This document shows, in pieces, positions 10,688 through 45,323 of a stretch of 57,249 nt of DNA. This DNA is from Thermoplasmatota archaeon (GTDB lineage Archaea > Thermoplasmatota > E2 > JACPAO01 > JAHFTW01): NCBI GenBank assembly GCA_049617695.1, contig JBMZJT010000004.1, positions 1 to 57,249 of the forward strand, written 5' to 3'. A model generated the notes under the pieces. It was not told where the DNA came from. It saw nothing but the letters and a program-made list of their open reading frames with translations, and did no database searches. Within the stretch, counting starts at the first letter, position 1. Each line of letters starts with the position of its first letter. A program made the position numbers and the translations under genes.

Positions 10688-12136
10688 GTGGCCCTGACGC
10701 TTTACAACGTCCGCACCCGCCAGAAGGAACCCTTCACGCCGCGCCAGCCTGGCAAGGTCGGCGTGTACCTGTGCGGCTTGACGGTGTACGATCACATGCA
10801 CATCGGCCACGCGCGCACGGCGGTCAGTTTCGAAGTGGTGCGCCGCTGGCTCGAGCACCACTACGACGAAGTCACCTTCAGTCAGAACGTGACGGACGTG
10901 GATGACAAGATCATTGCCCGGGCCCAGGAACTTGGCGTCAGCCCCTTGGAACACGCAGACACATGGGACAAGGAGTGCCAGAAACAGAGCGCCCGTCTCG
11001 GCGTGCGCGCCCCGGACATCGCGCCCCATGCGACGACCAGCATGGACGGCATCATCGCCTACATCGAAGGCATTCTCGAACGCGGATTCGCCTACGCCAC
11101 GGACGCCGGTAACGTCTACTTCGACGTGCCCAAGTACGACGCCTACGCCCAGGAGCACTTCCCCGAACAAGGCTACGGAAGTCTGAGCAACCGCGACTAC
11201 CGCGAAATGGCTGCAGGCACCCGGAAGGACGTCGAGTCGGACAAGCAACACCCCGCCGATTTCGCGTTGTGGAAAGCGGCAAAGGAGGACGAGCCAGCCG
11301 ACGCCCAATGGGACAGTCCGTGGGGCAAGGGACGCCCTGGTTGGCACATTGAATGCAGCCACATGTCCACGCACACCCTCGGCGCTGAGCAGATCGACAT
11401 CCACGGCGGCGGCCAGGACTTGATCTTCCCACACCACGAAAACGAGATCGCGCAAACGCAGGCCAAGACCGGCAAGGCGCCATTCGTCAATGTCTGGATG
11501 CACAGCGGCTTCCTCAACGTGGAGGGCGTCAAGATGAGCAAGAGCCTGGGCAATTTCATCACCCTCAAGGACGCACTCGACGACTTGGAAGACAAGGAAT
11601 GGGACCCCGAAGTCTTGCGATTCTACTTCGTCCAGACGCACTACCGCTCGAAGATTGACTTTAGCCGCAAAGGCCTGGATGAGGCCGCCACGGCCGTGGA
11701 ACGCCTGCGCAGGACCCGGGTGGCGCTCGCGCGCGCGACGGGCGAACCGAGCAGCGACGCGGGACTTGGCGAAGCGGCCGCGAAACTCATCGCCGATGCC
11801 CACGCGGCCCTAGACGATGACATCCACACGCCTGGCGCGGTTGCCGCGTTGTTCGATTTCACCAAGGCCGCCAACAAGGCGTTGGATGCGGGCGCCGGCG
11901 GCACCGACGCAAGTCAGGCGCTCGCGGCGTTCGAATCGGTTGCACGCCTGCTGACACTGTTCGACGACGTGATTGTCGAGGATGCTTTGCCCGATTTCGA
12001 GGCACTCCTGACCCAGCGTGAAGCAGCCCGCGCAGCCAAAGATTGGGGCACGGCAGATCGCATCCGTGACGAAATCCAAGCCGCAGGCTACCGCATTGAA
12101 GATACGCCCAACGGCGCAAGGGTTGTCAAGAGCTAG
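10688..12136 (+). CDS. cysS: cysteinyl-tRNA synthetase
   Basis: VALTLYNVRTRQKEPF aligns to the canonical CysRS N-terminus. HIGH motif HMHIGH and KMSKS motif present. GTG 10688 is preferred, with TTGAAAGG about 28 nt upstream; an in-frame ATG at 10637 is the alternative. Confidence 0.9.
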   Translation: MALTLYNVRTRQKEPFTPRQPGKVGVYLCGLTVYDHMHIGHARTAVSFEVVRRWLEHHYDEVTFSQNVTDVDDKIIARAQELGVSPLEHADTWDKECQKQSARLGVRAPDIAPHATTSMDGIIAYIEGILERGFAYATDAGNVYFDVPKYDAYAQEHFPEQGYGSLSNRDYREMAAGTRKDVESDKQHPADFALWKAAKEDEPADAQWDSPWGKGRPGWHIECSHMSTHTLGAEQIDIHGGGQDLIFPHHENEIAQTQAKTGKAPFVNVWMHSGFLNVEGVKMSKSLGNFITLKDALDDLEDKEWDPEVLRFYFVQTHYRSKIDFSRKGLDEAATAVERLRRTRVALARATGEPSSDAGLGEAAAKLIADAHAALDDDIHTPGAVAALFDFTKAANKALDAGAGGTDASQALAAFESVARLLTLFDDVIVEDALPDFEALLTQREAARAAKDWGTADRIRDEIQAAGYRIEDTPNGARVVKS

Positions 12137-12231
12137 GCAGCGCGGCTGAGCCAAGCGAACGCGCGCCCGGGTTTTCGAAAGGGGCGGCAGCCCCTTCGGA
12201 AGATACGCCCAACGGCGCGCGAGTTGTCAAG
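12098..12231 (+). repeat. direct repeat: last 33 nt of cysS coding (12098..12130) copied at 12199..12231
   Basis: gaagatacgcccaacggcgcaagggttgtcaag vs gaagatacgcccaacggcgcgcgagttgtcaag (30/33). Both are followed one codon later by a stop (EDTPNGARVVKS-TAG vs EDTPNGARVVKA-TAA). Period 101 nt. Confidence 0.85.
12172..12196 (+). terminator. oligo-T plus hairpin (AAGGGGC-ggca-GCCCCTT)
   Basis: TTTT at 12172..12175 and a 7-bp stem at 12179..12196, between the convergent cysS and helicase genes. Confidence 0.35.
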
Positions 12232-12240
12232 GCCTAACGC

Positions 12241-16446: not shown

Positions 16447-16562
16447 GCGAGGAGCAGGATCGCTTGCGCTGGCCGAAGGTCAGCGCAAGTGCGGGCGCAA
16501 CGCGCCCGAAGACTGCTCCGCGCACGAGCGAGGCGAAGCCGAGAGAGTGCGAGGAGCAGGAT
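16447..16562 (-). repeat. direct repeat: last 14 nt of tRNA-Leu (16549..16562) copied at 16447..16460
   Basis: gcgaggagcaggat is exact at both sites (tRNA sense ATCCTGCTCCTCGC). Period 102 nt. The spacer holds a 9-bp hairpin CTTGCGCTG-n9-CAGCGCAAG (16463..16489) and GGGCGC-aac-GCGCCC. Confidence 0.7.
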
Positions 16563-35841: not shown

Positions 35842-35971
35842 GGCGTTGCATCCAGGGCGGTCACTTCAAATGGGGGGTCGAAGTCGCGCGCCCTGAACCG
35901 GCCCCTTGATGCACTTCGTGCGCCAAGGTCCGCGCTTCGCGCTGCCTTCTGGCTTGCTTCGCAACCCACAA

Positions 35972-36044
35972 GGCCCCATGGGGTAGTTTGGTATCCTCTG
36001 GCGTTTGGGACGCTATGACTCCAGTTCAAATCTGGATGGGGCCA
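35972..36044 (+). tRNA. tRNA-Pro (anticodon TGG), CCA not encoded
   Basis: Hand fold: acceptor GGCCCCA/TGGGGCC, anticodon stem TGGCG/CGCTA with loop TTTGGGA, T-arm TCCAG-TTCAAAT-CTGGA, discriminator A. Confidence 0.9.
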
Positions 36045-36167
36045 CTTGTCGACCACGGATGATGCGTGGTCGAGCGAAGCGAGCGCCACGCTCCGAATGC
36101 AAACGTGGGCGTTTGCGTTCACATCTGAATGGGGCCACTTGTCGATCACGCACCGTGCGTGGTCGAG
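36024..36167 (+). repeat. 51-nt direct repeat: tRNA-Pro 3' part plus downstream hairpin (36024..36074) copied at 36117..36167
   Basis: gttcaaatctggatggggccacttgtcgaccacggatgatgcgtggtcgag vs gttcacatctgaatggggccacttgtcgatcacgcaccgtgcgtggtcgag (44/51). Hairpins at 36050..36072, 36099..36116 and 36143..36165. Confidence 0.9.
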
Positions 36168-36169
36168 TG

Positions 36170-36874
36170 CTAGAGATCCGTGACCCGGCCCAAGGACCAG
36201 GCCGGACGCTCCAGTTTCTCACCGGCGCGCACGGCCACGTCAAGTGGCGGCTCCAAGGCCAGGGGGCAATTCCAGTCCGGGCTGCGCGCGCAGCTCGGGT
36301 GGTATGCGAAATTCAGATCGAGCCGGAGTTTGCCATTGCTGGCGCCGAGCCAGGCGCCTTTGGGGCCGTCCAGCACGTAGCGGCCGCCACCGTAGGTTTC
36401 GTGTCCATTGGTGGCGTCCTTGAAGGCGACGAAGAGGCCGCCGCCGTACTGAATCATCCACATGGCGTAGATTTGGCCAATGGGTGTGTCCAGTACGGCT
36501 GCGGGGAAGACCTCGCCCCAGGGACCTTTGTGGCCGGTGAGCACGACGGTATCGGTCGGCTCGTCACGGCCTTCGAGGGGGGCCTGGGCGTCGAAGGGGA
36601 CCTCGTAGGCGAACTTGGGGTCGTAGTCCCAGTATTGCAGGCCTTGCCAGTCGTCCCGTTGGTCCACGGGAACGGGGCTTGCGTCGTGGGTGCGCCACAG
36701 TTCGTCGCGACGTTCCCGCCAGATGCGGTGGGCGTCGCGTGGGTCGCCTTCGTCGAGGCGGGCGCGGACATCGTGGTAGATGCGCGCCACGTCATTGCGG
36801 TAGTCGCTGAGGGCCAGAAGCTCGTTCACGGTCAGGAGGTGAGCACGCGGGGTGCCTCTTGGCCCTGCCGGCAT
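36170..36874 (-). CDS. DUF1684 domain protein
   Basis: GHETYGGGRYVLDG...LDLNFAYHPSCARSPDWNCPLALEPPLDVAVRAGEK matches the DUF1684 C-terminal signature. Confidence 0.82.
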   Translation of the reverse strand: MPAGPRGTPRAHLLTVNELLALSDYRNDVARIYHDVRARLDEGDPRDAHRIWRERRDELWRTHDASPVPVDQRDDWQGLQYWDYDPKFAYEVPFDAQAPLEGRDEPTDTVVLTGHKGPWGEVFPAAVLDTPIGQIYAMWMIQYGGGLFVAFKDATNGHETYGGGRYVLDGPKGAWLGASNGKLRLDLNFAYHPSCARSPDWNCPLALEPPLDVAVRAGEKLERPAWSLGRVTDL

Positions 36875-39827: not shown

Positions 39828-42080
39828 ATGAAGATGAAGCGCACCCTCGTGTCCTTCCTGCTCTTCGTGGTCTTGTTTGCTGGCCTTGCAGCGGCCGCCG
39901 GAATCGGCACGCAGACCACCTCTGATTTGCCCAGCGAATGGACATTGCCGGCGACGCAACCGGGCGACCGAGGCACCTACGTGGCATTCCAGATGGCGGG
40001 CGAGGAGGTCTACGGCCCCGTGCCGTACCTTCAATGGGAGCGCCTTCCGCGAGACACCTTGCATGACCGAGAAGGCATCAGCCGGGTGGTTGACGGCCTT
40101 CGATGGACGCAAGCCAGCTGGCACAGCGAAACAGCCAATACGTGGGAATACGGCATGGGCGCTGCGTCGGTGTCCTACCGTGACCCAGCGAACCAAGACG
40201 TCATCGCGATGGACCTCGAATTGCTCGACCTCACGATGGCCGACGCCGCAACGAGCCCCGACGGCCTCGGACTCATCCAGCAGCGAGCAGGCGGCGACGC
40301 ACAATTCCAGATCCGACAATTCCTGGACCCCGGCGACCCCCTGCGCGATGTACGCAGCTGCATGACAGATTCTGCAGCAGCCGGGACCACATTTTCGCTG
40401 GAGGAACCCGTGGTGATCTTTGATCGCTGCATCCTTCCAAATCTGCCGCTCAAGCAAGGAATCGCGCGCGTCGACGATGCGACGCCAGACGACATGGCCC
40501 ACCTGTTGTCGGCGCCGGTTCATCCCGTAGTGTCCCAGCGAACGTTTGCACCTCTTGGCCTGTCACCACAAGGTGAGCTTGTACTCGAACAAATCGAAGG
40601 AGCCCCAATTCGCGTGTGGTTGTCCCAGGAAATTCCCTACCCCGTGCGCTTGGCGATTCCTGGACCAAACGATGCATGGGACGTGTTTGACCTCACCGAG
40701 TTCCAGCCTGGCACGGCGGCAGATCGCACGGCAGTTCCTGGTGCCGACATTGATCTTGCCACACGCACGGGCATCGAGCCGTACGGCCTTCCCGATGCCG
40801 GCATGGACCATCCATTCCGCCCTTCGGAGGCCTACGCCATGGCGCGGGCCGACGATGAATCCGGACCCTGGCTCGAAACCAACCCCAATGCCCGTCTTGT
40901 GACGCTGTCCGGGCACCACATGCGTGCGACCGAGCGCGACGATCGGATTTCTTGGTGGTTCCAATTCGCCACCGCCGATGAGACCCTCACCGTGCACGTG
41001 GCGCGCGACATGAGCACGGCAGCACGCACCACGGCCCCGACCACATCCATCCTGCTGCCCGACGGCGAGGTCACCTTGGCCGCGACATCCCCCGGATCCC
41101 TCTTCCCAGGAGACCTCCTCGCCGCCCCGCTCACGGCAGCACCCCACGCAGTGGATTTGATGCGCATTTTCTACGACTACGCAGGCAACGCCAGAGGCAC
41201 CCAAGTGTGGAGCTTGATGTTGACGTGCATCGACGGGAACACGACCTGCGAACAAGCAGCATGGGCAGCCACGGCCGGGGTCGCAAAAACCTCCATTGAT
41301 CCTGCTGTGTACCAGGATCCCGCCATCGGGTTCGAAATCGAACTCTTGGACCACGGGATGCGGTTCTCCCCATACGACGGCCAACCCACGTCGCTGCATG
41401 AGGTTCATATCGCGGCCGCTTCGACCACCGGCGCAGGTACGCCGGACGCGCAGGCACCACCGACCGACGTCGAACCCGCCAGCACGGACGTTTCCTGGGA
41501 TGTCCCTAGCACGACGCGCCTCGTCCAGACGGGTGCAGCTGCGGCGCTGCTCGCCGTGTTGTATTTCCTTTGGCCCATGTTGAAATCGGTTGGATTTGGC
41601 CTGTTTTCACGGATTCACGGCGACGCAGCCTTGGACCATCCAGCCCGTGCCGATTTGCACGCGGCCATCGAGCAAGAACCGGGGATCCATTTCCAGGAAT
41701 TGGCCCGACGCACGCGCCTTGGCCACGGCGCCACGGACCACCATCTTCGCAAGCTGGTCGAAGCCCGCCGCGTGGTGCGCCACGAGGCCAACGGTTACGC
41801 CTGCTACTTCCCCATGGCAACGGATCGGCGCGTCATGGCCGCGGCGCCAGCGCTTCGCAGCAACACGGCCCGGCGGACGCTAGAAGCGATCATCGATCGG
41901 CCGGGCCTGAACGGGGGCGAGCTTGCCCAAGTTCTGGGTGCCAACCGAGGCACGGTCAACCATCACGTGAAGCGGTTGGTCGATGCAGGGGTCCTGACAG
42001 CCACACGCCATGGCCGAACCGTAGCGTATGAGGTCACGCAACTCGGCCTCCAAGTGGCCGGAGGGCGCGTCGCCGCCTAG
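39828..42080 (+). CDS. membrane-tethered regulator: signal peptide, ~560-aa extracytoplasmic region, TM helix, two winged-helix domains
   Basis: MKMKRTLVSFLLFVVLFAGLAAAAG. TM helix GAAAALLAVLYFLWPML. C-terminus LHAAIEQEPGIHFQELARRTRLGHGATDHHLRKLVEARRV...YFP...RRTLEAIIDRPGLNGGELAQVLGANRGTVNHHVKRLVDAGVL. Confidence 0.75.
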   Translation: MKMKRTLVSFLLFVVLFAGLAAAAGIGTQTTSDLPSEWTLPATQPGDRGTYVAFQMAGEEVYGPVPYLQWERLPRDTLHDREGISRVVDGLRWTQASWHSETANTWEYGMGAASVSYRDPANQDVIAMDLELLDLTMADAATSPDGLGLIQQRAGGDAQFQIRQFLDPGDPLRDVRSCMTDSAAAGTTFSLEEPVVIFDRCILPNLPLKQGIARVDDATPDDMAHLLSAPVHPVVSQRTFAPLGLSPQGELVLEQIEGAPIRVWLSQEIPYPVRLAIPGPNDAWDVFDLTEFQPGTAADRTAVPGADIDLATRTGIEPYGLPDAGMDHPFRPSEAYAMARADDESGPWLETNPNARLVTLSGHHMRATERDDRISWWFQFATADETLTVHVARDMSTAARTTAPTTSILLPDGEVTLAATSPGSLFPGDLLAAPLTAAPHAVDLMRIFYDYAGNARGTQVWSLMLTCIDGNTTCEQAAWAATAGVAKTSIDPAVYQDPAIGFEIELLDHGMRFSPYDGQPTSLHEVHIAAASTTGAGTPDAQAPPTDVEPASTDVSWDVPSTTRLVQTGAAAALLAVLYFLWPMLKSVGFGLFSRIHGDAALDHPARADLHAAIEQEPGIHFQELARRTRLGHGATDHHLRKLVEARRVVRHEANGYACYFPMATDRRVMAAAPALRSNTARRTLEAIIDRPGLNGGELAQVLGANRGTVNHHVKRLVDAGVLTATRHGRTVAYEVTQLGLQVAGGRVAA

Positions 42081-42937
42081 ATGTCCCAAACGGCTTCGAA
42101 CACTTCGTCCTGCAACGCCTCGTCTTGGGCATGCATGAAGACCTCTGCCGGGCCGGGCGCGCCGCGCCATTCACGGAAGCCACGGGGCCCCCAGTAGCTG
42201 CCGCCAGGAACATCCTGCGTGGCCGCGTACAACGTCGGAAGGGCACCACGGGCGGCTGATTGCAGGAATGGCACGTAGGCCAACATGGCGAGCTTGAACT
42301 TCAGCGGCATGTCGCGAGACAAGCGTGTGAGACTGACCCCCGGATGGGCAGCGATGCTGCGACGGCCATCGCCCAGGCGCCGGTCGAGGGCTTGGGCGAA
42401 CAGGAGGTTGCCCAGTTTACTTTGGCTGTAGGCCCACCAAGGCTGGTAGCGGTCCAGGCTGCGCCAACTCTCCGGCACGATGCGACCGCGCTGGTGGGCG
42501 ATGCTGCTGATGGTGACGACCCGATCCGTGATGCGGTCCAACAGGTGCTTGGTCAATTGCGCGTGCCCGACGACATTGACGCCCCATTGGGCTTCGTAAC
42601 CTTGCTTCGTCGTCCACGGCGGCGTCATCATGATGCCGGCGTTGTTGATCAGCACGTCCACCGATTCGGGGGCGGCTTCGGCAAACCGTGCCACGTCGTC
42701 CAGGTCGCCAAGGTCCAGCCGATGAAACTGGGCTTGGCCGCCGTGTTTTTGGATGCGCTTCACCGCAGCTTCGCCTCGCGCGGCGTCGCGGGCCGCGATG
42801 TGGACCTCGGCGCCTTTCTTGGCCAATTCCAGGGCCGTTGGATAGCCGATGCCACTGTTGCCACCGGTAATGACGACGGTGCGTCCGCTCTGGTCGGGGA
42901 TGTCCTTGGCGCTCCAGCTCACACGCGGCAGCGGCAT
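42077..42937 (-). CDS. short-chain dehydrogenase/reductase (SDR)
   Basis: VVITGGNSGIGYPTA (TGxxxGxG), NNAG and YSQSK (YxxxK). Confidence 0.9.
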   Translation of the reverse strand: MPLPRVSWSAKDIPDQSGRTVVITGGNSGIGYPTALELAKKGAEVHIAARDAARGEAAVKRIQKHGGQAQFHRLDLGDLDDVARFAEAAPESVDVLINNAGIMMTPPWTTKQGYEAQWGVNVVGHAQLTKHLLDRITDRVVTISSIAHQRGRIVPESWRSLDRYQPWWAYSQSKLGNLLFAQALDRRLGDGRRSIAAHPGVSLTRLSRDMPLKFKLAMLAYVPFLQSAARGALPTLYAATQDVPGGSYWGPRGFREWRGAPGPAEVFMHAQDEALQDEVFEAVWDI

Positions 42938-42966
42938 TCAGCCTACTTGATGATGCAGGAACCGGT

Positions 42967-43016
42967 CACTCGATGGCGAGAATGCGGAGGCACTCGGCGA
43001 GGATTGTGATCTCGCC
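42967..43016 (-). pseudogene. relic copy of the E1-beta C-terminus with its own stop
   Basis: Reverse complement reads GEITILAECLRILAIE-TGA versus the resident gene end DEIKILAECRRILSL-TAA. Same strand, 127 nt downstream. Many differences are synonymous. Confidence 0.75.
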
Positions 43017-43093
43017 AACTGTACTGTCCGAGGCTTCGCCTCGAACAGCACGCGCGACGAAACAACCTCCTTCGCTTGCCTAGGCCCTTCGCC

Positions 43094-44176
43094 TTACAGG
43101 CTCAGGATCCTGCGGCATTCGGCCAGGATCTTGATTTCGTCAGGCATGTACCAGTGTTCGCGGGCCAAGAGCGGCGTGTGGACATCGGGCGCACAGACGA
43201 GGCCGACAGGGGCTTCGAGGGCGTAGAACGCGTCGCTCTCGTTGATGCGGCGAGTGATCTCGCTGCCCCAGCCGCCGGAGCGAGGGGCTTCCTGGACGAT
43301 GACCACGCGGCCGGTCTTCTTGACGGACTTGAGGATGGTCTCGCTGTCCATGGGGCTCACGGTCTGGAGGTCCAACAGTTCGACGCTGACGCCGTCCTGT
43401 TCCAGTTGGTTGACCGCCTTGTCCGTGAACCAGCGCATGGCACCCCAAGTCACGATGGTGAGGTCCGTGCCTTCCTGGACGACTTCGGTTTTGCGCAGTT
43501 CGGCGACTTCTTCGTCAAGGGGCACAGGTTCGCGGTACTTGCGGTACAGGAACTTGGGCTCCATGAAGATGACCGGTTCATCGCTCTGGATGGCGGCCTT
43601 CAGGAGACTGCGGGCGTTGCGGGGCGTGCTGGGCATGACGACGGTCAGGCCGGGCGTGTGCGCGAAGTAGGTCTCGCGGCTCTCGGAGTGGTGCTCGAGG
43701 GCACGCACGCCGGCGCCGTAGGGCATGTGGATGACCAGGGGGACCTTGTGGCGGCCGTTGCTGCGCTTGTAGAGGCGGGCAATCTGGGATTCGTAGTGGT
43801 GCATCGCTTGGTAGCTGAAGCCACTGAACTGCATCTCGCCGATGGCGCGGTAGCCGGCCATGGCGAGACCCGTGCAGGCGCCGGCGATGCCCATTTCGCT
43901 GATCGGCGTGTCCACGACGCGGTGCTTGCCGTGCTTGTCCATCAGGCCGTCGGTGAGGCGGAAGATGCCGCCGTCGCGGCCGACGTCCTCGCCCATGATG
44001 AGGACCTTTTCGTCGTTGCTCATTTCCTCGTCGAAGGCCATGTTCATGGCTTCAATGAGGTTCAGTTCGACGTAGCCGGTCTTGTCGCATTCTTCCTTCT
44101 TGCGCTCATACTGGAGCTCCCAGGTCGGGCGGCTGAAGAAGGGGTCTTCGCGGTCCGTCATCATCATTTCACCCAT
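43094..44176 (-). CDS. 2-oxoacid (pyruvate/branched-chain) dehydrogenase E1 component, beta subunit
   Basis: From ATG 44176: MGEMMMTDRE...LNLIEAMNMAFDEEMSNDEKVLIMGEDVG...DTPISEMGIAGA. Confidence 0.92.
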   Translation of the reverse strand: MGEMMMTDREDPFFSRPTWELQYERKKEECDKTGYVELNLIEAMNMAFDEEMSNDEKVLIMGEDVGRDGGIFRLTDGLMDKHGKHRVVDTPISEMGIAGACTGLAMAGYRAIGEMQFSGFSYQAMHHYESQIARLYKRSNGRHKVPLVIHMPYGAGVRALEHHSESRETYFAHTPGLTVVMPSTPRNARSLLKAAIQSDEPVIFMEPKFLYRKYREPVPLDEEVAELRKTEVVQEGTDLTIVTWGAMRWFTDKAVNQLEQDGVSVELLDLQTVSPMDSETILKSVKKTGRVVIVQEAPRSGGWGSEITRRINESDAFYALEAPVGLVCAPDVHTPLLAREHWYMPDEIKILAECRRILSL

Positions 44177-44177
44177 C

Positions 44178-45323
44178 TTAGTGACCTCCCTCGGGCAGGC
44201 CGTGTTCTTCGAAGTGGGCCAGGAGTTGCTCCTTTTGCCATTCGAGGTAAGGCGGGTTTTCGATGAATGCGTTGGCGAACATGTAGTCGGGGGTGCTGAG
44301 TTCCTTGGCGCGGACTTCGAAGCGTTCGACGGCTTCGTCGATTTGCGCCTTGACACGCTCCTGGAGTTCCGCTTCCTTGGTCTTGTTCCAGATGCGCTTC
44401 TTGGTGAGGTAGGTGCGGAAGCGCGTGATGGGGTCCTTGGCTTCCCAGGCTTCTTCCTCTTCCTTGGGCCGGTACTTCTTGGGGTCGTCCGCGGTGGTGT
44501 GGACGTTCATCCGGTACGTGATGCACTCGATGAGCACCGGGCGGCCCTTGCGGGCAGATTCAACGGCCTTGCGGGCGGCGTAGACGACGGCGAGGATGTC
44601 GTTGCCGTCGACTTGGATGCCTTCCATGCCGTAGGCGATGGCCTTCTGGGCGATGGTTTCGCTGCGGGTTTGGACGCTGCGGGGGGTGCTGATGGCCCAC
44701 TGGTTGTTCTGGATGACGAAGACGACGCCGACGTCTTGGACGCTGGCGAAGTTGATGGCTTCGTGGAAGTCGCCTTCGCTGGTGCTGCCGTCGCCGCCGT
44801 AGGTGATGGCGATGTTGTTGGTGCCGTCCAGCTTTTCGGCCCACGCAGTGCCCAGGGCGTGGGTGTACTGGGTGCCGATGGGGATGGCGATGGGCGTGAT
44901 CTTGGCGCCCTCGGGGATGTTCATGCCTTCTTCGAAGCCGGCGCAGTAGAGCAGGTCGTCGGTGAGGTCGGCGCCGAGCCAGATGTTGCAGACGCTTTCG
45001 CGGAAGGCCGGGCAGAACCAGTCATCCGTGGTGACTTGGCTGATCGTGCCGACTTGACAGGCTTCTTGGCCGTGGGCGGGGGCGAAGGTGCCGATGCGGC
45101 CTTGGCGTTGCAGCTTGAGGCGGCGGTGGTCGAATTCGCGGCTCAGGACCATGGTCTCGTACATGCGCACGAGATCTTCCTTGGCAATCTTGGGTTCGAG
45201 GTCCTTGTCGACGTTGCCGTCTTGGTCCAGGATGCTGACGTAGGGAATCTCCTGCGTCTTGTAGGCGGTCGTGATGGGCATGGTGTTCGGGCCGGCCCAG
45301 CCGAGGGCCGATTTAAGGCTCAC
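44178..45323 (-). CDS. 2-oxoacid dehydrogenase E1 component, alpha subunit (TPP-binding)
   Basis: GQEACQVG, YGGDGSTSEGDFHEAINFA and YRMNVHTTADDPKKYR. GTG start. Confidence 0.92.
   Translation of the reverse strand: MSLKSALGWAGPNTMPITTAYKTQEIPYVSILDQDGNVDKDLEPKIAKEDLVRMYETMVLSREFDHRRLKLQRQGRIGTFAPAHGQEACQVGTISQVTTDDWFCPAFRESVCNIWLGADLTDDLLYCAGFEEGMNIPEGAKITPIAIPIGTQYTHALGTAWAEKLDGTNNIAITYGGDGSTSEGDFHEAINFASVQDVGVVFVIQNNQWAISTPRSVQTRSETIAQKAIAYGMEGIQVDGNDILAVVYAARKAVESARKGRPVLIECITYRMNVHTTADDPKKYRPKEEEEAWEAKDPITRFRTYLTKKRIWNKTKEAELQERVKAQIDEAVERFEVRAKELSTPDYMFANAFIENPPYLEWQKEQLLAHFEEHGLPEGGH

Follow-up and report, generated by a model that had tools for sequence, protein, structure and literature searches.

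The gene for the beta subunit of a 2-oxoacid dehydrogenase E1 component (E1-beta) in a Thermoplasmatota archaeon is followed, on the same strand, by a second, diverged copy of its own 3' end. The DNA analysed here, called the window below, is a stretch of 57,249 nucleotides (nt) from contig JBMZJT010000004.1 of assembly GCA_049617695.1. Judged from its sequence, the second copy, a 51-nt relic, is an inert, untranslated vestige of a former E1-beta end, and on balance it was probably displaced by out-of-register recombination with incoming alleles of E1-beta and of its operon partner E1-alpha. The interest lies less in the relic, which is inert, than in the recurrent architecture behind it: a module of about 128 nt separates gene body from old end, and is built of the tail now in use, including the stop, of an arm that is complementary to this tail in inverted order and of a short second hairpin. 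Positions of all features are collected in Table 1.

The relic is a dead copy of the last 16 E1-beta codons, set apart from the real stop by a spacer of 77 nt (43017..43093). It shares 10 of 15 residues and 30 of 45 nt (67%) with the resident tail; 4 of the 12 core codons carry an amino-acid change, and the other core differences are synonymous. A preliminary description of this DNA had proposed such a copy and had asked how it would fare against shuffled sequence. The copy proved to be real: aligned without gaps, relic and resident tail reach 47 under BLOSUM62, the next-best 15-mer in a six-frame translation of all 57 kb scores 22, and 1,500 shuffles of the 156-nt intergenic region gave a mean of 8.2 (standard deviation 4.2) and a maximum of 27. 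That description had also put both peptides on one strand, which is the minus strand, with the relic start off by one base (it is 42966) and a resident range two bases too long (it ends at 43141). What it called an in-frame relic 127 nt past the real stop is in fact in frame +2, the offset from stop to stop being 128 nt. The relic frame is closed by a TAG 12 nt beyond the E1-beta stop and contains no ATG, GTG or TTG, either in the window or in the related lineage L008. Above-chance similarity, coding-type divergence (see below) and the lack of a start codon or of a joined open reading frame (ORF) are all found together in the relic, as is expected of a vestigial fragment. Assembly artefact was rejected as a source of the structure: the region occurs with zero differences in contigs from four independent public runs, and the arrays of L021-24 are identical across four assemblies. 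Covariance models of Rfam 15 gave nothing near threshold in 42700..43400 and, in 35900..36300, the tRNA only.

The arrangement recurs among related Thermoplasmatota. Collection scans and protein-anchored look-ups of metagenome-assembled genomes and metagenomes yielded 42 loci, with E1-beta proteins 63-98% identical to that of the window, and these represent 21 distinct lineages (window included) with enough downstream sequence. The layout of tail, inverted arm, hairpin and tail is present in 14 of the 21, as arrays of one to three relic tails: the window, L003, L006, L007, L008, L010, L012, L015, L016, L019, L021, L026, L028 and L039. It is absent from the downstream sequence of the remaining seven (L001, L004, L005, L011, L029, L036 and L042). 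L025, which lies outside the count because its contig ends too early, probably has it as well. Two relic tails are found in L021 (4069..4330) and L028 (3584..3830) and three in L012 (4450..4860), and the relic units of these three lineages carry inverted arms of their own; L028 is a clean tandem array with a period of 124 nt, and L012 contains a recent, near-perfect tandem duplication of 232 nt. Contigs L002, L025 and L027 end 26-61 nt past the E1-beta stop, as would be expected if assemblers break at the tail repeat. Spacers at the E1-beta arrays measure 35-110 nt. The frame of the relic relative to the gene differs among lineages (+1, +2 or 0), and 9 of the 14 relics still have a stop where the gene has its own. 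Every tail encodes a version of a single peptide, K[IV][LV].E[CV].R[IV]L.., and the tail type of each relic (KIVAEV, KILREC, KVLRAV and others) matches that of its own lineage; no tail-like peptide was seen on the opposite strand at the loci examined. Contigs of co-occurring strains from runs X2 and X5 cover window positions 43095..43200 with alternative tails ending in ERILSF or SECKRILSL before the stop, along with an L019-type arrangement, so E1-beta tail variants coexist within single samples.

The way in which relic and resident tails differ indicates that the relic was once a working end. Across 13 relic/resident pairs from 11 lineages, compared over 12 core codons each, the proportions of synonymous and non-synonymous differences (pS and pN) are 0.60 and 0.15 (pN/pS 0.25). 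Differences fall at the three codon positions in the numbers 29, 19 and 74 (74 of 122 at third positions), and they produce 29 amino-acid differences against 73.8 expected under random placement, a value as low as 29 being reached in none of 5,000 simulations. Such coding-type divergence implies that, for most of the time over which it diverged, each relic served as a working tail, as the preliminary description had supposed on the strength of largely synonymous codon differences; one of its examples, AAG/ACA, is a change from Lys to Thr and so non-synonymous. A copy drifting neutrally beside a constrained gene cannot yield this pattern, and conversion frequent enough to guard the relic would wipe out the synonymous differences. 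At the level of sequence, then, relic and working tail differ as two functional alleles do. A diversity-generating retroelement was considered and rejected as the source of the differences: mismatches involve all four bases in both directions (CTG/CTC, CGC/CTC, ATC/ATT) and are not adenine-specific. A Pfam scan of the immediate neighbours, and of these only, found no reverse transcriptase among them.

The relics are also native to their loci. That of L007 lies 6-7 nt from the working tails of L004 and L011, sister lineages without an array, and is closer to them than the L007 working tail is; that of L019 is 3 nt from the window's working tail, and that of L008 is 1 nt from the working tail of L015. 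Array-free L005 has a T/C-rich terminator after its working stop, and in L010 and L039 its homologue lies behind the relic stop (P<0.001), whereas the sequence after their own working stops shows no homology to it; these relics have thus kept the ancestral terminator. Relics are the native ends, and the proximal tails the newcomers. Freshly displaced relics decay, that of L019 having lost its stop (TAA to TAC) and acquired two non-synonymous changes. The working tail of L015 is nearly identical to its own relic and no longer fits its own inverted arm, a combination which implies that a relic can convert, that is overwrite, a working tail.

The module between gene body and relic has a defined structure. 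The tail and the inverted arm (roughly the first 40 nt after the stop) are predicted to fold as an imperfect hairpin of about 45 bp with the stop codon at its tip, which is often C-GUAA-G, a GNRA-type loop holding the stop. The shorter hairpin CGAGGC-ttc-GCCTCG, reported earlier at 43029..43043, is real and forms the tip of a longer one of 14 bp. The predicted fold of the whole region in the window has a z score of -4.5. The tail/arm duplex of the window is calculated at -49.3 kcal/mol, compared with -37.5 for shuffles, and its own spacer is the top-ranked of 13 partners for its tail; pairing of the arm with the relic is marginal (z = -2.2). A significant inverted arm was found in 10 of 13 arrays and at none of 5 array-free loci. 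When every tail was paired with every spacer, cognate duplexes averaged -47.5 and non-cognate ones -32.1 kcal/mol, the own spacer ranking first of 13 for the tail at 8 loci and the own tail first for the spacer at 9. The sense strand folds more stably than the antisense strand at 12 of 13 loci. The central hairpin is 97.5% identical between the window and L019 over 41 nt, and compensatory changes conserve it in L010. Because the hairpin suits its own tail lineage by lineage and folds better on the sense strand, a role at the RNA 3' end can be proposed: the long hairpin probably forms a structure at the end of the E1-alpha/E1-beta mRNA, by which the transcript is stabilised or terminated. Two other structured elements were rejected on inspection by eye. 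A bulge-helix-bulge intron would have two 3-nt bulges separated by 4 bp, which the predicted hairpin lacks, and there are no GTTRRRY or RYYYAAC boxes of an integron attC site at the base of the hairpin.

The comparison with other lineages also bears on the operon as a whole. L019 is the closest relative at this locus, its E1-beta protein being 98% identical to that of the window. Between window 43094..45323 and L019 1854..4083 the operon is 90-99% identical in nucleotides, compared with 65-80% for the upstream flanks on the same contig. Identity steps up at the start of E1-alpha and holds to the start of the tail, with the E1-beta body at about 95%. Beyond that point the two sequences form a mosaic: identity is 55-60% over the tail and half-way into the inverted arm, 97% over the base of the arm and the central hairpin, and lower again at the relic. 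Synonymous divergence (dS) between the window and L019 is 0.25 for E1-alpha, 0.36 for the E1-beta body, 1.26 for the E1-beta tail and 1.89 for the adjacent helix-turn-helix (HTH) gene. Values of 0.73 for a DEAD helicase and 1.04 for the cysteinyl-tRNA synthetase (CysRS) come from another contig, assigned to the organism of L019 only because both proteins are recorded on one 447,243-nt contig. An operon dS of 0.25-0.36 against 0.7-1.9 elsewhere points to a recent, operon-sized exchange between species. By these comparisons, E1-alpha and E1-beta have been exchanged between lineages much more recently than their flanks diverged, with the right boundary of the exchange at the tail and hairpin. Tails stand apart from adjacent gene bodies in other pairs too. 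Divergence of the working tail, against that of the preceding 240 nt, is 0.389 versus 0.079 for window/L019, 0.306 versus 0.075 for L004/L007 and 0.278 versus 0.108 for L008/L015, compared with 0.028 versus 0.075 for the array-free pair L004/L011; the tail thus diverges 3-5 times faster than the adjacent gene body where at least one genome of the pair has an array. The genes 3' of E1-beta vary by lineage and include an SDR (short-chain dehydrogenase), an HTH protein, a citrate-synthase-like protein, a membrane protein and convergent genes, which places E1-beta at a synteny breakpoint. The SDR gene follows the array in the window, L003 and L010 and is absent from L019 (4084..4224, compared with window 42077..43093), where the relic abuts the end of a convergent HTH gene. 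The arrays of the window and L019 differ in register; together with the L012 duplication and the L028 period, this shows that array units are gained and lost.

These observations can be joined into one course of events. E1-alpha/E1-beta alleles from related lineages would enter time and again by homologous recombination, with the left crossover inside the gene. The right crossover would fall, out of register, in the tail or hairpin repeats, since these are the only sequence shared where the DNA beyond E1-beta is non-syntenic between lineages. The resident tail would then be shunted downstream instead of being replaced, and unequal recombination would afterwards expand or trim the array, the relic itself having no function. 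The preliminary description had offered two origins, DNA that arrived with a gene end of its own or a second E1-beta gene of which only this remnant is left, and that proposal gains support from the native-end relics, the L005-type terminator and the dS step at the operon. It contained nothing on the inverted arm, the clade-wide arrays, the motif shared among spacers or the duplications at other genes, to which we now turn.

Further cases were sought in the 57-kb window by scanning all long ORFs for downstream copies of their own tails and by a scan for direct repeats. The last 12 codons and stop of CysRS recur after a 62-nt hairpin spacer. In the closest relative, L030, CysRS has no such spacer and its stop overlaps that of the convergent DEAD helicase; the CysRS relic of the window occupies the same native position, which indicates that the 62 nt are an insertion and that the relic is the native end. 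At tRNA-Pro(TGG), the 3' end of the gene and the hairpin after it are repeated, the copies lying 42 nt apart; the repeat runs 29 nt past the tRNA, its junction lies in the T-loop, and no integrase was found nearby. The 14-nt repeat of the tRNA-Leu(GAG) end is a possible fourth 3'-end duplication, with a spacer rich in C-UUCG-G hairpins. An inverted arm is not significant at CysRS or tRNA-Pro.

The spacers have sequence in common. The 19-mer GGCTGAGCGAAGCGAACGC, with up to 3 mismatches, matches the CysRS and tRNA-Pro spacers only, 0.07 matches being expected; the E1-beta spacer (GGCCTAGGCAAGCGAAGGA) agrees with the CysRS motif at 14 of 19 positions, at an equal offset from the stop, and variants occur in the E1-beta spacers of L021, L026, L015 and L003. 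GCGAA[GC] is found 11.0 times per kb in spacers, on one strand only, versus 1.02 per kb in the background (11-fold, p = 3e-13). The tRNA-Pro spacer TGCGTGGTCGAGCGAAGCGAGCGCCACGCTCCGAATGCAAACGTGGGCGTTTGCGTTC (about 36063..36120) has a contig depth 40-50 times that of its flanks in two metagenomes, and matches to it lie on many contigs with differing flanks, also in runs without this organism, so that by sequence it resembles a short, dispersed repeat. A CRISPR repeat was rejected, as the matches are 52-62 nt long and occur singly inside contigs of 1-3 kb. A few other contigs carry the CysRS hairpin as well. The E1-beta spacer, which is specific to its locus, is not a multi-copy sequence; allelic variants in co-occurring strains account for the surplus depth there. 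Searches of the window and of about 250 kb of related loci with blastn and nhmmer returned the seed sequences only, the E1-beta tail had no match in viral contigs, and 16-mer and 19-mer spacer motifs gave chance-level matches or unrelated coding sequence there.

Several of these results weigh against displacement by an incoming allele. Plain recombination leaves unexplained the motif common to the E1-beta, CysRS and tRNA-Pro spacers and the apparently high copy number of the tRNA-Pro spacer, both of which point to a process driven by an element. Within this lineage the two CysRS copies are each other's sisters, their first 18 nt being identical and different from the outgroup, and every change falls in the final 7 codons of the working copy; this pattern fits duplication or insertion in place better than the import of an allele. 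The L003 copies are identical over 41 nt, implying recent duplication or conversion and not a foreign allele. A donor genome was found for no working tail, the history of the window and L019 requires a three-unit ancestor or two separate events, and codon bias could partly explain the low dS of the E1 genes. The RNA role of the hairpin is, moreover, one that we infer from modelled folds.

The main rival to allele displacement, though we judge it rather unlikely, is a mobile double-hairpin element of about 60-80 nt, GCGAAG-rich, which would insert at the ends of protein and tRNA genes and duplicate 14-51 nt, leaving the gene itself whole, so that the relic would be a long target-site duplication; subsequent exchange of alleles, with unequal recombination, would then give rise to the divergence and the arrays. 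The presence of four 3'-end duplications within 57 kb (at E1-beta, CysRS, tRNA-Pro and tRNA-Leu), the shared and variant 19-mer motifs, the GCGAA[GC] enrichment, the over-represented tRNA-Pro spacer, the CysRS hairpin on other contigs, the 62-nt insertion at CysRS relative to the closest relative and the 41-nt identity in L003 all speak for such an element. However, the spacer at E1-beta itself is not multi-copy, no further family members appeared in the window or the related loci, and no terminal inverted repeats, transposase or integrase were seen. The duplications, at 14, 39, about 48 and 51 nt, vary in length in a way unlike known transposition chemistry; the depth may partly reflect sequence conserved across many organisms, since tRNA 3' halves behave likewise, and the coding-type divergence would still require allele exchange as well. 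A broader version, in which the clade carries an undescribed family of GCGAAG-rich double hairpins that insert exactly at gene 3' ends, restore each end through a target duplication far longer and more variable than known transposition chemistry gives, and serve as mRNA ends and as reusable junctions for operon swaps between species, the displaced tails being able to convert back, is speculative and in our view a little less likely again.

The order of direct, inverted and direct copies in the E1-beta arrays would follow from a tandem inversion duplication formed in place, by a replication template switch at the palindrome around the stop codon that gives tail, inverted tail and tail; hairpins would be kept as mRNA stabilisers or terminators, and conversion would keep the relic tail-like. 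The stop indeed lies in a small palindrome, often C-GUAA-G, and an outgroup already has ACGCG-TGA-CGCGT at the stop; the inverted arms of the relic units in L028, L012 and L021, the relic-to-gene conversion in L015 and the sister relationship of the CysRS copies are also consistent with it. Yet copies that are identical at birth, followed by neutral drift of the relic, cannot give a pN/pS of 0.25 with a pS near 0.6, conversion protecting the relic would erase the synonymous differences, CysRS and tRNA-Pro have no significant inverted arm, and the mosaic identity and the dS step bespeak exchange between lineages. We regard this origin as improbable. Still less credence can be given to an attachment-site scar, by which a tyrosine-integrase element that had brought its own version of the end into E1-beta, tRNA-Pro and CysRS at their 3' ends was later almost wholly deleted and left attL and attR close together. 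Its repeats of 39-51 nt are of the size of archaeal att cores, such as those of SSV-type integration into tRNA genes; its targets are a tRNA gene and conserved genes, in each case at the 3' end, with the tRNA-Pro junction in the T-loop, and the proximal copy is newer, as an end supplied by the element would be. But the 14 lineages yielded neither an integrase nor an element body, the E1-beta neighbours being by Pfam the SDR, an HTH protein, E1-alpha and a DUF1684 protein; the spacers are only 35-110 nt, and independent deletions would not repeatedly leave an equal, tiny, structured remainder. The tRNA-Pro repeat also extends beyond the tRNA, and the E1-beta tail had no match on viral contigs.

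A function for the relic itself, either translated (as a small ORF or by read-through, frameshifting or ribosome bypass) or acting as the third segment of an RNA switch, is scarcely credible and has already been largely refuted. Its appeal rests on conservation at the peptide level, on the homologous stop kept in most relics and on L007, in which the minimum-energy and centroid folds differ by exactly the alternative of arm with tail or arm with relic. Translation in any of these ways was rejected because the relic frame has no start codon, closes early and varies among lineages, and fresh relics such as that of L019 decay. The three-segment switch is unlikely, as arm/relic pairing is no better than that of shuffled sequence in 9 of 12 arrays.

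Displaced 3' ends are not without precedent. Orphan cdiA-CT modules are comparable displaced C-terminal ends. At rhs loci, incumbent C-terminal tips are displaced by incoming ones through homologous recombination and accumulate as dissociated fragments; these tips are long and non-homologous and encode different toxins with their immunity genes, diversity being what the system is for (Jackson et al. 2009, PMC2935791). The E1-beta arrays resemble both in that an intact gene has strings of its displaced 3' ends behind it on one strand, and related strains differ in the attached end; the distal fragment is the former incumbent and the proximal one the newcomer, and the CysRS relic too is in native position. 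Unlike rhs and cdiA tips, however, E1-beta ends are 12-20 codons of a housekeeping enzyme, essentially one peptide with no toxin or immunity diversity, and are set apart by hairpin spacers of 35-110 nt, the working end pairing with an inverted arm. The att duplications of SSV-type elements in archaeal tRNA genes likewise consist of direct repeats, 40-50 nt long, of gene 3' ends, the proximal copy new and the distal one original; those at E1-beta have no element body or integrase between them, have diverged (67% nucleotide identity here, with only L003 identical) and enclose homologous spacers. Tandem inversion duplications in Salmonella, reportedly described by Kugelberg, Roth and colleagues, are said to form by snap-back template switching at short palindromes, and share with the E1-beta arrays the direct/inverted/direct order, junctions at short palindromes and remodelling by deletion; the Salmonella units are kilobases long, selected for dosage and short-lived, whereas those of E1-beta measure about 125 nt, persist across genera and diverge as alleles do. 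REP sequences (repetitive extragenic palindromes) and the mosaic elements (BIMEs) that they form lie at gene 3' ends and have been implicated in mRNA 3'-end stability and as recombination join points. They too are short hairpins just past stops, sometimes clustered, and the tRNA-Pro spacer looks multi-copy as they are, but REPs are near-identical, dispersed and unaccompanied by duplicated gene ends, while the E1-beta spacer is locus-specific and takes one arm from the tail of its own gene. Finally, in xenologous in-place displacement of operon genes and in homology-facilitated illegitimate recombination, a resident is replaced via conserved-sequence anchors and old fragments may remain; a literature search on homology-facilitated illegitimate recombination gave nothing specific. 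Scars of that kind are normally sporadic, in contrast to the E1-beta junction, which is reused in most lineages of the clade with a defined hairpin architecture.

If the proposed displacement holds, the arrays would be a recurrent footprint of the replacement of a core metabolic operon between archaeal species, in which the old end is shunted aside and past alleles so stay readable. Should the module prove to be an active element, or a junction dedicated to recombination, it would represent a new and harmless way to insert DNA at gene ends, and would explain breaks in metagenomic assemblies just past such genes. The predicted hairpin with the stop in its loop can in addition be tested as a candidate 3'-end signal of archaeal mRNAs, about which little is understood.

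Table 1. Features of the E1-beta locus and of the other 3'-end duplications in the window.
Feature	Position	Strand	Basis or remarks
E1-beta (2-oxoacid dehydrogenase E1 component, beta subunit; pyruvate-dehydrogenase type), 360 aa	43094..44176	-	ORF; Pfam Transket_pyr and Transketolase_C; homologues 98-63% identical
E1-alpha, operon partner upstream of E1-beta; exchanged recently together with it	44178..45323	-	Pfam E1_dh; dS versus L019 0.25; identity rises from about 66-74% to at least 90% at its start
Resident (translated) tail, DEIKILAECRRILSL followed by TAA; 5' arm of the predicted long hairpin	43094..43141	-	sequence; fold with stop at apex
Inverted arm, imperfect reverse complement of the tail; carries GGCCTAGGCAAGCGAAGGA	43055..43093	-	predicted to pair with the resident tail
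Central 14-bp hairpin GUGCUGUUCGAGGC-GAA-GCCUCGGACAGUAC, includes CGAGGC-ttc-GCCTCG	43021..43051	-	sequence, RNA fold
Relic tail, (V)GEITILAECLRILAIE followed by TGA; untranslated; former E1-beta 3' end, displaced	42966..43016	-	similarity, frame, coding-type divergence
SDR gene, begins 29 nt past the relic stop	42077..42937	-	ORF, Pfam
CysRS tail EDTPNGARVVKS plus stop, and second copy of last 12 codons and stop, EDTPNGARVVKA plus stop	gene end 12136; copy 12199..12237 (region 12098..12237)	+	39 nt, 87% nucleotide identity
tRNA-Pro(TGG), gene 35972..36045; last 22 nt and 29-nt hairpin repeated	36024..36074 and 36117..36167	+	51 nt, 86% identical
tRNA-Leu(GAG), last 14 nt, ATCCTGCTCCTCGC	16447..16460 and 16549..16562	-	recurs 102 nt downstream

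The adjacent HTH gene, on the plus strand at 39828..42080, encodes a protein of 750 aa whose long N-terminal part is not conserved; it also has a membrane segment and, at the C-terminus, HTH domains of the HVO_0163 and winged-helix types. The closest relative has a counterpart to which identity is only 43%.

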